A stretch of DNA of 64,000 bases from Escherichia coli (lineage in GTDB: Bacteria; Pseudomonadota; Gammaproteobacteria; Enterobacterales; Enterobacteriaceae): the NCBI RefSeq assembly GCF_013122565.1, contig NZ_CP053258.1, one strand, 5' to 3'. A program made the position numbers and the translations under genes. Positions 673-42,968 of the stretch are shown here, in pieces. Below the pieces are notes generated by a model that had not been told where the DNA came from, did no database searches, and worked only from the letters and a program-made list of their open reading frames with translations. Numbering within the stretch: position 1 is the stretch's first letter; each line of letters opens with the position of its first letter.

Positions 673-1974
673 TCAGGCAGAGGTAAATTGCGGGATGTTA
701 TGCCATAACGGCCAGCTAAACGAGAAGCGGGCACCACCCAGTTCGCTGGTGTCACAATTAACCGTACCGCCCATTGCCAGTGCTATAGAGTGGACAATTG
801 CCAGCCCCAGCCCGCAGCCGCCGGTTGAGCGATCCCGGCTGGGATCGAGGCGAACAAAAGGTTCAAAGATATGTTCGCGGTTTTCTGGGGCAATCCCTGG
901 GCCATCATCCTCAACAATTAATGTCGCTCTATTCCCCGACAGTAGCAGGCTGGTTTCAACCGTTGAATGGCAGTACCGCAGGGCGTTATTGAGCAAATTA
1001 TCCAGCACGCGCTCCATTAAGCGCATATCCAACGCCGCATAATGGCCTTGCACGAGCGTTTTTATCCGTACCGTTTTATCGGGCGTTACTGCCTGAATAT
1101 CTGCTAGATGCGTTGACAGCCACAACGGCAGGTCTGGTTCGCTAAGATGAAGCTCGTTTTGTGGGCGATCGAGTCGGGCATAAGTCAGCAGCTCTTCAAT
1201 TAAAGCTTCAAGTTGACTGATATCACGATTCAACGCCTGGGATTCGGCGGCGCTCAGGTTATCGCTCATCTCCAGTCGATAACGCAGGCGCACTAACGGT
1301 GTTCGCAGTTCGTGAGCGATACCGTCAATAAGCTGTTTTTTGCTGGCAATTAAGGCGTTGATATTGTCCGCCATCTGGTTAAATGCGACGCCAAGTCGTT
1401 CAAAGCTCGAACCCTCATCAAAGTGGATACGTTCATTGAGATGCCCATCGCCAAATCGTTGCGCCGCTGCTTCCAGTTTTAACATATCCTGCCAGTGCGG
1501 ACGCATCCAGATAAACACCGGAAAGGCGAGGGAAATAGCAATAAAAGCGATCAGGGCGATATCCAGCAATCGCATCTGATGGAGATAATAAAGATAAGGA
1601 ACAGGACCAACTGCCAGCACGTAGTGGCTGCGCGGGATACGCTGCAAAAACGTGTACTGATCGTCCAGGGCGACAATTTCGCCGCCACGCAGTCGGTGCA
1701 TGGAAATATCATCAAGATGGTATTTACTCAGTGGCTCGACACGCAGATCGAAAGAGAGATTTAAATCCATCTCTTTCAGAGTCTTACCCCAGTCGTGTGG
1801 GGGGATCTCACGCAATTCGCTGCGCATCAGATACAGCGAACTGTTCATCAAATCATCCAGCGACTGTTTGCCCGCGCGTTCGGCGGTAAATTTGTACACC
1901 AGCCCAACCAGCAGAGACATCACAAGGAAGCAGACAAACAATAACAGGTAAAACTGGATAAACAGTTTTTTCAT
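673..1974 (-). CDS. rstB: Sensor histidine kinase RstB
   Basis: 433 aa ORF with two N-terminal TM segments, HAMP, H-box (HELRTPL) and HATPase motifs; adjacent to rstA. Confidence 0.9.
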   Translation of the reverse strand: MKKLFIQFYLLLFVCFLVMSLLVGLVYKFTAERAGKQSLDDLMNSSLYLMRSELREIPPHDWGKTLKEMDLNLSFDLRVEPLSKYHLDDISMHRLRGGEIVALDDQYTFLQRIPRSHYVLAVGPVPYLYYLHQMRLLDIALIAFIAISLAFPVFIWMRPHWQDMLKLEAAAQRFGDGHLNERIHFDEGSSFERLGVAFNQMADNINALIASKKQLIDGIAHELRTPLVRLRYRLEMSDNLSAAESQALNRDISQLEALIEELLTYARLDRPQNELHLSEPDLPLWLSTHLADIQAVTPDKTVRIKTLVQGHYAALDMRLMERVLDNLLNNALRYCHSTVETSLLLSGNRATLIVEDDGPGIAPENREHIFEPFVRLDPSRDRSTGGCGLGLAIVHSIALAMGGTVNCDTSELGGARFSFSWPLWHNIPQFTSA

Positions 1975-1977
1975 CGC

Positions 1978-2697
1978 TTATTCCCATGCATGGGGCGCAA
2001 AAAGATAGCCTTTGTTACGCACAGTTTTAATGCGATAAGGTTCTGCGGCGTTATCGAGCAGTTTTTTTCTTAACCGCGAAATAGCCACGTCCACGCTACG
2101 ATCCAGTCCGTCATAACTGACGCCGCGTAAATTTTTCAGCAATGCATCGCGGTCCATGATTTGCCCAGCATGGGTAGCTAATTCCCACAATAATTCGAAA
2201 TCAGCTGTCGAGAGCGAGATTTCAGTGTTAGCCAGGGTGACTACGCGGTTGATGGGATCGATGGTCAACGTGCCGAAATGCAGGGCTTTGTAGGGAGTCA
2301 GAGACGTTTCCTGAAGACCTTTGGTCAGTGTGGCTTGCTCATTCTGACGCAAATGCAAACGTAAACGCGCTAGCAAAACAGCAGGGGGCGTCGTTTTGAG
2401 AATATAGTCGCAGGCACCCATTTCCAGTGCCAGGATGTGGTTCATATCGCTATCGAGAGAGGTTAGAAGAACAATCGGTCCAGACCACTTTGCGCGTAAA
2501 TCACGACAAATGGTCATGCCGTCCTTGCCTGGTAGCATGATGTCGAGTAACACCAAATCCGGATTTTCTCGCAAAATGGTTTCTTCGGCCTGGTCGCCGC
2601 GCGGCTCTACGGTAACCTGCATATCATGTTTTGCCAGGTACGCGGCAATCAGTGAACCGACTTCCGCATCATCTTCCACAAATACGATAGTGTTCAT
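1978..2697 (-). CDS. rstA: OmpR-family response regulator RstA
   Basis: ORF track 1978..2757; likely true start MNTIVFVEDD (ATG at 2695-2697) giving 239 aa; receiver domain plus winged-helix domain. Confidence 0.9.
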   Translation of the reverse strand: MNTIVFVEDDAEVGSLIAAYLAKHDMQVTVEPRGDQAEETILRENPDLVLLDIMLPGKDGMTICRDLRAKWSGPIVLLTSLDSDMNHILALEMGACDYILKTTPPAVLLARLRLHLRQNEQATLTKGLQETSLTPYKALHFGTLTIDPINRVVTLANTEISLSTADFELLWELATHAGQIMDRDALLKNLRGVSYDGLDRSVDVAISRLRKKLLDNAAEPYRIKTVRNKGYLFAPHAWE

Positions 2698-2825
2698 AAC
2701 ATTCACGGTAGATATAAAAACGTCACAATACACCGCGCTGTTTTTACTTACTATCAATCGTTTCTAAACAAGTTTTCATCAGGTATTCTACTGATGACTT
2801 GTTATGGAAGTGTTAAGGTAAAAAG

Positions 2826-12909: not shown

Positions 12910-12993
12910 TCAGGAAAGATAAAAACGGGCGGCAATCAGTGCGCATAAAATAAGGATGATAAGAATGAACTCAAAGCGATAACGGCCCACCAT
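12910..12993 (-). CDS. ydgU: Small hydrophobic protein YdgU (27 aa)
   Basis: Manual translation MVGRYRFEFILIILILCALIAARFYLS; too short for ORF track. Confidence 0.6.
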   Translation of the reverse strand: MVGRYRFEFILIILILCALIAARFYLS

Positions 12994-13085
12994 ACTACCC
13001 TCCGCTAAAGGCGGTGCTAAACGTTACCCGCTTAGCACCGTAATTTTCAGGCGCGAGGGGGCGCGCCAGCATTACTGTTGAAAAC

Positions 13086-13394
13086 TTACGCTGCGGGTTG
13101 TGCAGCAGGTTTTGCCGGTTGCTGATGGCTGTGTTTCCCGGCGTGTTTCTTCGCTGCCTGCGCTTTTTGTTCAGGGGCTTTCTGTTCAGCTTTCGTATTT
13201 TTATGATGCTTTTTAGCCGCCTGCGCTTTCTGGGCAGGTGCTGCTTTATGCTGTTTTTTATGATGTGTAGTTTTCGCCGGCGCTGCTTTGGTGGTCGTCG
13301 CAGTCGGAGCAGGTGTGGTCGCAGTCTCTGCAGCAAAGGCGGCAGAAGACAGACCCATAGCAGCGGCAACAACCAGAGCTAATACTTTTTTCAT
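13086..13394 (-). CDS. asr: Acid shock protein Asr
   Basis: ORF track 13086..13421; canonical start [14 protein letters not shown] (signal peptide); lysine/alanine/histidine-rich repetitive periplasmic protein. Confidence 0.85.
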
Positions 13395-40449: not shown

Positions 40450-41340
40450 ATGATCAAGAAGACAACGGAAATTGATGCCATCTTGTTAAATCTCAATAAG
40501 GCTATCGATGCCCACTACCAGTGGCTGGTGAGTATGTTTCACAGCGTGGTCGCGAGAGATGCCAGTAAGCCAGAAATAACGGATAACCATTCTTATGAAC
40601 TGTGCCAGTTTGGTCGGTGGATTGATCATCTGGGGCCACTCGATAACGATGAATTACCTTACGTTCGGCTAATGGATTCTGCCCATCAACATATGCATAA
40701 CTGTGGTCGGGAATTAATGCTGGCTATTGTTGAAAATCACTGGCAGGACGCGCATTTCGACGCTTTTCAGGAAGGGTTACTTTCTTTTACTGCGGCATTA
40801 ACCGATTACAAAATTTATTTACTGACGATCCGTAGCAATATGGATGTTTTGACGGGATTGCCGGGGCGTCGGGTTCTTGATGAATCCTTTGATCATCAGT
40901 TACGCAACGCTGAGCCTCTGAATCTTTATTTAATGTTGTTGGATATTGACCGATTTAAATTGGTTAATGATACCTACGGGCATTTAATCGGCGATGTAGT
41001 ATTACGCACCCTGGCAACTTACTTAGCCAGTTGGACGCGTGATTACGAAACGGTTTATCGCTACGGGGGCGAAGAATTTATCATTATTGTCAAAGCGGCT
41101 AATGATGAAGAAGCATGTCGTGCAGGTGTCAGAATTTGCCAGTTAGTCGATAACCATGCCATCACACATTCTGAAGGGCATATCAACATTACCGTGACAG
41201 CAGGTGTGAGTCGCGCATTTCCTGAAGAGCCTCTGGATGTGGTCATTGGAAGAGCGGACCGGGCAATGTATGAGGGTAAGCAAACCGGAAGAAATCGCTG
41301 CATGTTTATTGACGAACAAAATGTGATTAACCGAGTTTAA
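40450..41340 (+). CDS. dgcZ: Zinc-sensing diguanylate cyclase DgcZ (CZB + GGDEF)
   Basis: ORF track 40444..41340; start MIKKTTEIDAILL; RYGGEEF motif; 296 aa. Confidence 0.9.
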   Translation: MIKKTTEIDAILLNLNKAIDAHYQWLVSMFHSVVARDASKPEITDNHSYELCQFGRWIDHLGPLDNDELPYVRLMDSAHQHMHNCGRELMLAIVENHWQDAHFDAFQEGLLSFTAALTDYKIYLLTIRSNMDVLTGLPGRRVLDESFDHQLRNAEPLNLYLMLLDIDRFKLVNDTYGHLIGDVVLRTLATYLASWTRDYETVYRYGGEEFIIIVKAANDEEACRAGVRICQLVDNHAITHSEGHINITVTAGVSRAFPEEPLDVVIGRADRAMYEGKQTGRNRCMFIDEQNVINRV

Positions 41341-41379
41341 GCTCCGTTTAACATTCATTGAGAAAACTGATGCTACTGT

Positions 41380-41485
41380 GTCAACGATCCGTTATCAGTG
41401 CAGGAAAATGCCTGTTAGCGTAAAAGCAAAACACAAATCTATCCATGCAAGCATTCACCGCCGGTTTACTGGCGGTTTTTTTTCG
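41380..41485 (+). ncRNA. mgrR: Probable MgrR sRNA
   Basis: About 100 nt between dgcZ stop and a plus-strand intrinsic terminator (CCGCCGG-TTTA-CTGGCGG followed by T8); position matches K-12 mgrR between dgcZ and mgtS. Ends approximate. Confidence 0.4.
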
Positions 41486-41490
41486 CCGTC

Positions 41491-41531
41491 ATAAAAATCA
41501 GGCCCCTTGTACACAACTGTAACAAGGGGCC
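41491..41531 (-). terminator. Rho-independent terminator downstream of mgtS
   Basis: GGCCCCTTGT-loop-ACAAGGGGCC 10 bp stem followed on the minus strand by a T-rich run. Confidence 0.45.
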
Positions 41532-41558
41532 GGTTAGGTGAGGGATTATCTCCGTTCA

Positions 41559-41654
41559 TTAGTCATCCCATTTGTGGCTGAAATACGCGGCCAGAAAACC
41601 AGAAAATAAAATTATTCCCAGTACGGCCATAAAAACATTCATATTACCCAGCAT
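41559..41654 (-). CDS. mgtS: Small membrane protein MgtS (YneM), 31 aa
   Basis: Manual translation MLGNMNVFMAVLGIILFSGFLAAYFSHKWDD with GGAGG RBS; too short for ORF track. Confidence 0.8.
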   Translation of the reverse strand: MLGNMNVFMAVLGIILFSGFLAAYFSHKWDD

Positions 41655-41780
41655 TATTTGCCTCCGTTTATGGTGTGGTGTGTTTCCTCGCTTACCTTAA
41701 TTTTCATCTCAATGAGAAAGATATTAGCAGAGGTAACCTAAACGAAGGCTGAATTAAATTTTTATTGTGTTCGACTTAAA

Positions 41781-42968
41781 TCAACAAAGCGCGGGCTGCC
41801 CCCACGGTCTTGCACGAATCCCTTTTAACATCAGCACCCACGCAGCAATAATCACCAACGCTAAGATGATAAACAGCGAGGAAGGCGGCAGGTTGGTTAG
41901 CACTAGGCCACTCACTAATGGGTTAATTGCGGCACCAAGCCAGCCTAAAGACTGGGCGGAAAAATAGCTGGCTTTCATTCCTGGCGGCGCAATATGGTCA
42001 ATCAACATATACTCGCCCGGCGCATAAATGATTTCACCGACAGTAAATACCGCAGCTGACATACCCCACAATAGCAGGCTGTTGCCGGAAAAAATAAAAC
42101 CGACCAGTCCGATGACGAAACAGAGGGTGCCTGCTGTCATCAGCGCGCGGATGTTAGCCGGGTTAAGGCGGCGGCCCACGGAATATTGCAATGTAACCAC
42201 CATGGCAGCATTCACCGGAAGAACAACCGCGACCACCTTTTCGGCAAAATCCCCATCAGCAATCACCATCACATATTGTGAAATGCATGAAGCAAATGCG
42301 CCGCTAACAAAAGAAGCCAGAAAACCAGAGCAGGTAAACCACAACAGTGCTTTATCTTGTAATAAAACTTTCGGCGACCAGACACTGCCTGTTTCCGTGG
42401 CGATGATTTTCTCGCTGCGCTTTACCCATATTTGAATGAAAAGCATGGGGAACGCGGAACAGATAGCTGCCAGCCAGAAGGGCAGATTGATGCTCTGCAT
42501 CACCAACAGCGTGCCGAGCGGCGGACCGATGGTCCAGCCAATGTTTAGCATGGTGTAGTTAATTGAGAAGATTTTCGTTTTGCTGGTGGACGAAAGATTG
42601 TCGGCAAACCAGGCTTTCAACACGGTAGCAAAAACGGAATAGGCGCAGTTAATGAGGGCAAAAAAGAGCACCACCAGCGTCACGTTATTCACTAAAGGAA
42701 TGGCAATAAAACCGCTGGCGAAGGCGGTAATTGCCAGTAACATATAGCGTTTCTTGTCGAACTTATCCGCCAGGATACCAAAACCGAGGCTAAAAACGAC
42801 GCCAATAGTGAGCGCAATTGTCATCGCATAACCGATTAGATCGACACTCAGGCTGTACTGGCGACTCAAGTAAATGGTCATAAATGGCAGCGTAGCGCCG
42901 CGTCCGATGGTTAATAACAACGACGAGGCAAGAAGGGCGCTGGTAGAGCGTCGTAGGGATAAGTTCAT
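41781..42968 (-). CDS. ydeE: MFS efflux transporter YdeE
   Basis: 395 aa 12-TM ORF. Confidence 0.85.
   Translation of the reverse strand: MNLSLRRSTSALLASSLLLTIGRGATLPFMTIYLSRQYSLSVDLIGYAMTIALTIGVVFSLGFGILADKFDKKRYMLLAITAFASGFIAIPLVNNVTLVVLFFALINCAYSVFATVLKAWFADNLSSTSKTKIFSINYTMLNIGWTIGPPLGTLLVMQSINLPFWLAAICSAFPMLFIQIWVKRSEKIIATETGSVWSPKVLLQDKALLWFTCSGFLASFVSGAFASCISQYVMVIADGDFAEKVVAVVLPVNAAMVVTLQYSVGRRLNPANIRALMTAGTLCFVIGLVGFIFSGNSLLLWGMSAAVFTVGEIIYAPGEYMLIDHIAPPGMKASYFSAQSLGWLGAAINPLVSGLVLTNLPPSSLFIILALVIIAAWVLMLKGIRARPWGQPALC

Follow-up and report, generated by a model that had tools for sequence, protein, structure and literature searches.

The 440-base spacer at 41341-41780, between dgcZ on the plus strand (stop codon at 41338-41340) and ydeE on the minus strand (41781-42968), is almost certainly the known mgrR / mgtS-mgtT locus of E. 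coli. It holds two convergent transcription units that are activated by PhoP when PhoQ senses low Mg2+. The window, that is, the whole stretch of DNA analysed here, covers 64 kb of the E. coli contig NZ_CP053258.1. When aligned to E. coli K-12 MG1655, the spacer differs by only 2 substitutions, at 41389 and 41760, and since K-12 carries annotations for mgrR, mgtS and mgtT in this sequence, the same three genes are assigned here. RefSeq annotates mgtS and mgtT in the spacer, to which the K-12 MG1655 annotation adds the ncRNA mgrR (b4698, 98 nt). The locus is already known and its sequence is near-identical to that of K-12. A 501-base query located the region in 5416 of the 5426 complete E. coli genomes, with many copies being 100% identical, and we met no evidence that contradicts the identification. 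We report the identity and coordinates of the locus, its RNA structures, families, conserved promoter layout and terminator, and the complementarity of MgrR to eptB; for the dependence on PhoP and on Hfq, for the targets of MgrR and for the function of MgtS, we draw on the literature.

The original prediction assigned an untranslated stretch of the plus strand to the small RNA MgrR, and an Rfam search of the whole window, with a very strong match spanning 41380-41485, bears this out. The match is to family RF01407 (STnc560) at 41352-41565 on the plus strand, covering positions 1-214 of the 214 of the covariance model, with 281.9 bits and E = 1.8e-64 against a gathering score of 55. At gathering thresholds this is the sole Rfam match across the 64-kb window, and the family is described as “Hfq binding RNA”. 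STnc560 is the Salmonella name of MgrR. The limits of the match are not those of the transcript, as it includes 34 nt of promoter and 82 nt past the 3' end of the sRNA, and it spans the promoter, the sRNA, both terminators and the mgtS stop. The Hfq-dependent sRNA itself is placed at 41386-41483, where K-12 b4698 maps by alignment; its length of 98 nt and its start at 41386 come from the K-12 annotation and secondary citations.

The predicted fold of MgrR has an energy of -25.9 kcal/mol (z = -2.9), and none of 200 shuffled sequences was as stable. It consists of a 5' stem-loop (41390-41420, nt 5-35), an open middle and a terminator hairpin with a U8 tail. The open middle holds an A-rich single-stranded stretch (41421-41438) and the target-pairing region (41440-41453, nt 55-68). 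As predicted originally, the plus strand has an intrinsic terminator with a run of eight Ts, its stem being at 41457-41476 (nt 72-91; 8 pairs, 6 of them G-C) and the T8 tract at 41476-41483. Enzymatic probing of MgrR agrees with the predicted fold (PMC6239178). The same study placed the target-pairing region at U55-A68 and noted an A-rich, ARN-like stretch. Here, nt 55-68 read TATCCATGCAAGCA, as published, and are unpaired in the predicted fold. Together, the A-rich stretch at 41421-41438 and the U8 tail, the latter a site for the proximal face of Hfq, would be the features of a class II Hfq-binding sRNA. Binding to Hfq was shown for MgrR/STnc560 in PMC6239178 and PMC2515195; in the latter, Salmonella STnc560 is an RNA of ~90 nt from the ydeI/ydeE spacer, 29-fold enriched with Hfq by co-immunoprecipitation.

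As for targets, the single-stranded nt 55-68 are known from the literature to pair with mRNAs. With MgrR restricted to its single-stranded core, nt 54-69 pair with positions -7 to +9 of the K-12 eptB leader, across the start codon, at -17.6 kcal/mol. This energy alone is not significant, as 58 of 500 shuffles were equally good, and the position agrees with the literature. According to the literature, pairing on eptB covers the start codon and leads to less of a lipopolysaccharide-modifying enzyme. A further target reported in the literature is pitA. A duplex prediction between full-length MgrR and eptB was dropped, because it ignores intramolecular structure and shuffles scored equally well. 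MgrR carries one SNP, at 41389 (nt +4), with C here and T in K-12. This base is unpaired in the fold, and C is the majority base in the mgrR alignment (65% across Enterobacteriaceae).

For comparison across species, we made one scan of species-representative genomes, the query being a 19-mer out of the target-pairing region of MgrR; it gave 100 loci, nearly all of them in Enterobacteriaceae. The alignments used 94 mgrR loci and 45 mgtS loci from this family. Two loci (L043, from Atopobium, and L059, from Cyclobacteriaceae) were excluded as chance matches, and a third (L011), labelled as a Caldithrix MAG, is E. coli contamination. In Enterobacter, Klebsiella, Raoultella, Lelliottia, Leclercia and others, mgrR stands without mgtS beside it; judging by these loci, the gene has a far wider distribution than the mgrR-mgtS linkage.

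Upstream of mgrR, we predict a PhoP box, CGTTTA-ACATT-CATTGA, at 41345-41361 on the plus strand. Its two half-sites lie 11 bp apart, and it ends 12 bp before an extended -10 element, TGcTACTGT (41371-41379), with the annotated +1 (41386) 7 nt past the -10. Across the 94 mgrR loci, GTTTA at 41346-41350 is 97-100% conserved. In the downstream half-site, conservation is 99% for the TT at 41358-41359, 81% for G41360 and 86% for A41361. In the -10 element, TG at 41371-41372 reaches 95-100%, and T41374, A41375 and T41379 are each at 100%. The resulting footprint is (C/T)GTTTA at 41345-41350, TT at 41354-41355, (C/T)(A/G)TTGA at 41356-41361, 12 variable bases, TG, and then TAnnnT at 41374-41379. Sequence upstream of 41344 is unconserved. 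A PhoP-box-like half-site CGTTTA had been pointed out just past the dgcZ stop. It is there, at 41345-41350, 5 nt after the stop, but it does not stand isolated: the alignment indicates that it is the upstream half-site of a conserved box of two half-sites at the -35 position of mgrR.

A different box would pair the same CGTTTA with a half-site further upstream, as AGTTTA-AGCTC-CGTTTA (41334-41350), overlapping the dgcZ stop. We consider it unlikely that this is the functional box of mgrR. It has 2 mismatches to the consensus, compared with 4 for the downstream box, yet AGTTTA at 41334-41339 is unconserved outside Escherichia, with at most 0.5 bits per column. Moreover, 23 bp separate its end from the -10, against a conserved 12 bp at mgrR and mgtS alike. 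We rejected it as the core box, being unconserved and one helical turn (11 bp) too far upstream. AGTTTA could nevertheless be an extra, Escherichia-specific half-site in the 11-bp register.

The conserved promoter also bears on whether the plus-strand stretch is a gene at all, or simply belongs to dgcZ as its 3' untranslated region and terminator. The terminator scan found no terminator from the dgcZ stop (41340) up to the hairpin at 41457-41476, so dgcZ transcripts probably end at the MgrR terminator, which would suit such a reading. Against it, the PhoP box and extended -10 are conserved between the dgcZ stop and 41386 in the 94 loci, while what lies upstream of 41344 is not. In Salmonella, which lacks dgcZ at this place, the sRNA sits between ydeI and ydeE and forms a distinct RNA of ~90 nt bound by Hfq (PMC2515195). 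A separate 98-nt gene is annotated in K-12, and the literature reports a primary (triphosphate), PhoP-dependent 5' end at 41386. We regard the untranslated-region explanation as extremely improbable and keep mgrR as an independent gene, the transcription of which is reported to depend on PhoP (PMC3536696, PMC6239178).

On the opposite strand, the predicted 31-codon ORF with a strong ribosome binding site is confirmed residue by residue. This is mgtS (formerly yneM; K-12 b4599), which encodes a 31-aa membrane protein at 41559-41654 on the minus strand with the product MLGNMNVFMAVLGIILFSGFLAAYFSHKWDD. Its Shine-Dalgarno sequence, GGAGG at 41661-41665, lies 6 nt before the ATG. Both family models match over residues 1-31 of 31, with 80.6 bits for NCBIfam NF033842 (an equivalog; cutoff 35) and 88.2 bits for Pfam PF22865 (cutoff 27). 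Reportedly, MgtS stabilises the MgtA transporter and acts on PitA, and in this way increases intracellular Mg2+, according to the accounts relayed by 10.1101/511675 and PMC11429745.

The putative mgtS promoter has a predicted PhoP box, AATTCA-GCCTT-CGTTTA (41739-41755, minus strand), and an extended -10, TGcTAATAT (41721-41729). In the 45 mgtS loci, the downstream half-site is conserved at 93% (G), 98% (T), 82% (T), 93% (T) and 100% (A), and the upstream half-site, xxTTCA, at 69-87%. The -10 element has T41726 at 96%, A41725 and T41721 at 100%, and G41728 at 76%. Read along the minus strand, the consensus is AATTCA (41755-41750), N5, (T/C)GTTTA (41744-41739), 12 bp, and TGnTAATAT (41729-41721). 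Transcription would then start near 41713.

The mgrR and mgtS promoters share one geometry, with a PhoP box, 12 bp and an extended -10, and with no -35 hexamer. Consistent with this, a sigma-70 consensus scan returned no -35/-10 pair for either gene. This is expected of activator-dependent promoters without a -35, and as both are of this kind, the result is not evidence against them. In canonical PhoP-activated promoters of E. coli, the PhoP box (T/G)GTTTA-N5-(T/G)GTTTA replaces the -35 (summarised in PMC7667037). A scan for PhoP boxes upstream of both genes had been suggested. As a consensus scan it missed both; it was the alignments that revealed a conserved box at each. The boxes have 4 mismatches each to the consensus, beyond a limit of at most 2-3, so a scan allowing 3 mismatches does not reach them. 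Run across the window, the scan at 3 mismatches or fewer gave 182 matches where 152 were expected, which is uninformative. The half-site cores are 82-100% conserved over the 94 mgrR and 45 mgtS loci. These putative box footprints fit the published activation by PhoP, and both genes are listed as directly PhoP-activated (PMC3536696).

The mgtS gene was also predicted to have its own terminator, and it does. We placed this intrinsic terminator at 41491-41531 on the minus strand by folding, inside the mgtT frame. Its hairpin, GGCCCCTTGT...ACAAGGGGCC, runs from 41531 down to 41501 and is followed by the tail TGATTTTTAT, from 41500 down to 41491. Most mgtS transcripts should stop at this hairpin. 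With a start near 41713 and a stop after the hairpin, the mgtS transcript would be ~220 nt, in line with the opposite-strand transcript of ~190 nt described in Salmonella as “yneM ORF” (PMC2515195).

The terminator is well conserved. Convergence of mgtS on mgrR at a distance of 90-200 nt was seen in 38 loci, and all 38 have a stem of 9 bp or more past the mgtS stop. These stems have 16 distinct sequences with compensatory changes, such as GGCCCCTTG/CAAGGGGCC, GGCTTCTTACA/TGTAAGAAGCC, GGCCCTTTACG/CGTAAAGGGCC and AGCCCGCGG/CCGCGGGCT. Usually, T6-T8 comes directly after the stem; in Escherichia, TGA lies between the stem and the T-run. This TGA might make the mgtS terminator weaker in Escherichia; the T count in the 9 nt past the hairpin does not separate it from the other genera (6 compared with 6-8). 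In Kluyvera, the mgtS stop is only ~15 nt from the mgrR terminator hairpin, and neither a second hairpin nor a start for mgtT is present.

A third small gene, mgtT, lies directly downstream of mgtS. Four elements were absent from the original prediction: mgtT, its antisense overlap with MgrR, the second half-sites of the boxes, and asr-ydgU. The mgtT ORF has 34 aa (41455-41559, minus strand; K-12 b4775), with the product MNGDNPSPNRPLVTVVYKGPDFYDGEKKPPVNRR, and appears in both the ORF list and RefSeq. Its ATG overlaps the mgtS stop by 1 nt, as TAATG at 41557-41561. Pfam PF23498 matches residues 1-34 of 34 with 96.3 bits (cutoff 27), and NCBIfam has no MgtT model. Its discovery came from ribosome profiling of stalled initiation complexes, and tagging confirmed the protein (10.1101/511675). 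A 2025 preprint describes mgtS-mgtT as an operon with PhoQ-dependent transcription (PMC11429745).

The mgtT frame passes across the hairpin that terminates mgtS and has its stop within the terminator of MgrR. The hairpin at 41501-41531 makes up codons 10-20 (RPLVTVVYKGP), and the U-tract and stem of MgrR, read as their complement, make up codons 26-34 (EKKPPVNRR). As a result, terminator complement accounts for 20 of the 34 codons in E. coli, and the apparent conservation of RPL...KGP and KKPP in tblastn matches is explained by RNA structure. In the 38 loci, the frame that opens at the mgtS stop has 7 to 80 codons, with unrelated C-termini across genera. The 34-aa form is present only in E. 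coli, E. albertii and one other Escherichia. Conservation of MgtT as a protein was not found beyond the genus in these 38 loci, and the membership of the E. coli copy is unaffected by this.

It is doubtful, then, that MgtT ranks with MgtS as a conserved small protein with a function of its own. Its translation has been shown, the tagged protein being detectable (10.1101/511675), it is induced by low Mg2+ through PhoQ (PMC11429745), it has a Pfam family of its own, and in the 38 loci both the TAATG/TGATG junction and ~6 codons at the start of the frame are conserved. However, in many Citrobacter the frame meets a stop at codon 15, the frame outside Escherichia is variable in length and C-terminus as given above, and with the terminator complement making up most of the codons, the apparent conservation follows RNA structure. 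MgtT is not membrane-associated, its deletion and overexpression give no phenotype (PMC11429745), and the missing NCBIfam model also counts against it. MgtT is real as a translated E. coli ORF and is probably a young, genus-specific product, which fits the absent phenotype.

The last 29 nt of mgtT are antisense to the 3' end of MgrR. Transcripts of mgtS that read through the hairpin at 41501-41531 would carry mgtT and become antisense to MgrR, and such read-through is the likely source of mgtT mRNA. Two published data sets touch this overlap. The first has an RNase III-dependent site at K-12 1622816, labelled as intergenic yneM-mgrR (PMC5371410); we mapped this site to 41484 of the window, one base past the MgrR 3' end. 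Its authors did not reproduce the cleavage in vitro and attributed this failure to a known antisense transcript. The second, from p19 capture, has a dsRNA cluster at mgrR that measures 165 nt and exceeds the 98-nt sRNA in length (PMC7373196). Both indicate that overlapping transcripts exist. Neither study worked out a mechanism.

We tentatively suggest, as a rather improbable scenario, that in Escherichia both PhoP outputs are coupled in cis. A duplex cut by RNase III would let mgtS read-through and MgrR limit each other, and MgtT would be a young, genus-specific ORF dictated by two terminators. Translation of mgtT through the hairpin at 41501-41531 might favour read-through.

Furthermore, the window had been suggested to hold three PhoPQ-controlled loci, counting rstA. 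The rstA gene is indeed annotated at 1978-2697 on the minus strand, next to rstB (673-1974, minus strand), and is reported as PhoP-activated, but the count was too low. With asr-ydgU added to rstA, mgrR and mgtS-mgtT, there are at least four PhoPQ-influenced transcription units in the 64 kb. The rstA promoter has three tandem half-sites at 2754-2781 (minus strand), the spacing of which cannot be fixed without a mapped start; binding of PhoP to this promoter is covered in a review (PMC11825808). As for asr (13086-13394) and ydgU (12910-12993), both annotated on the minus strand, ydgU is PhoQ-dependent within the asr-ydgU operon (2025 preprint, PMC11429745).

The PhoQ/PhoP response to low magnesium has MgrR and MgtS as two of its arms. 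According to work published from 2008 to 2019, they influence how lipopolysaccharide is modified, how sensitive the cell is to antimicrobial peptides and how much Mg2+ it contains. Raw sequence was enough to recover an sRNA and a 31-codon gene, both of which an ORF track would miss. To the known locus our analysis adds modest refinements, namely the shared promoter geometry, the conserved mgtS terminator, the wide range of mgrR and an MgtT that is not maintained outside Escherichia.

Lastly, we compared the locus with its counterparts in known systems. MgrR has the same fold, pairing region, terminator, promoter and position downstream of dgcZ as K-12 b4698, and differs at nt +4 only. MgtS is 100% identical to K-12 b4599 in protein and DNA, with the same Shine-Dalgarno sequence, terminator and convergence with mgrR; upstream of the gene there is one SNP, at 41760, just beyond the PhoP box. 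MgtT is a 100% identical 34-aa ORF when compared with K-12 b4775, with the same overlap of the mgtS stop. In the case of the promoters, mgrR and mgtS both resemble canonical PhoP promoters in having a hexamer direct repeat with an 11-bp period at the -35 and one half-site that is a near-perfect xGTTTA. Unlike canonical sites, for which 2-3 mismatches are the usual limit, their second half-site is weak, CATTGA at mgrR and AATTCA at mgtS. The strong half-site is the distal one at mgrR and the proximal one at mgtS.

The window also contains the asr and ydgU pair, at 12910-13394 on the minus strand. The first gene, asr, is downstream of RstA and has a length of 102 aa when the ATG at 13394 is taken as its start; ydgU encodes a product of 27 aa, MVGRYRFEFILIILILCALIAARFYLS. 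The latter is listed as PhoQ-dependent and induced by low Mg2+ (PMC11429745). This pair is a fourth PhoPQ-linked locus of the window, not counted in the original prediction, which named mgrR, mgtS and rstA as three possible ones. As for rstA (1978-2697, minus strand), three PhoP-like half-sites were found in tandem upstream of it at 2754-2781 (minus strand), in an 11-bp register, reading TGATGA-AAACT-TGTTTA-GAAAC-GATTGA. The last of these, GATTGA, resembles CATTGA, the weak half-site of the mgrR PhoP box. Which pair of these half-sites occupies the -35 position depends on the location of the rstA start site.

In terms of transcript ends, no intervening terminator was found on the plus strand between the dgcZ stop codon and the MgrR terminator (41340-41457). 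The MgrR terminator is probably the 3' end of the dgcZ mRNA, which would place the entire MgrR sequence inside the dgcZ 3' UTR. On the opposite side, a terminator-like hairpin on the minus strand (41780-41806; CGTGGGGGCAGCCCGCG followed by CTTTGTTGAT) sits in the final codons of ydeE, with its T-rich tail crossing the stop codon. This hairpin would shield the mgtS promoter from read-through out of ydeE.

We then consider loci found by scanning species-representative genomes with a 19-mer of the MgrR pairing region. Kluyvera and relatives (L018, L035, L041, L044, L084, L088 and L089) have a divergent MgtS, with about 60% identity and the C-terminus ...SGKWND. In these loci just some 15 nt separate the mgtS stop codon from the hairpin of the mgrR terminator, one hairpin is common to both genes, and the mgtT start codon is absent.

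Many genomes carry mgrR with no adjoining mgtS (L008, L029, L063, L071 and about 50 further loci), among them Enterobacter, Klebsiella, Raoultella, Lelliottia and Leclercia. In L050 and L093 an MgtS gene is found 4-6 kb from mgrR. The convergent pairing is thus not universal. Enterobacteriaceae bacterium RIT691 has two mgrR copies 1.6 kb apart (L019, 1437-1455 and 3031-3049, minus strand), with similar sRNA bodies and with promoters that diverge in their upstream part; only one copy adjoins mgtS. One contig, SMXE01000224.1 (L011), is labelled MAG: Caldithrix sp. Its MgtS and MgtT translations are 100% identical to those of E. coli, and the spacer around them hardly differs from that of the window; the contig is almost certainly E. 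coli contamination in a metagenome bin.

The mgtS 5' UTR contains a strongly conserved element, GGTAAGCGAGG (41686-41696, minus strand), with G41689 and G41687 at 98% and G41686 at 100% across 45 Enterobacteriaceae loci. Kluyvera lacks the ~24 nt that follow this element, and there its GAGG appears to act as the Shine-Dalgarno sequence. E. coli mgtS has it as an additional SD-like element upstream of GGAGG.

Lastly, when compared to K-12, MgrR has a sole internal change, at nt +4 (41389, plus strand), predicted to be unpaired in the fold. The base is T in K-12 and C here, and most Enterobacteriaceae loci (65%) also have C.
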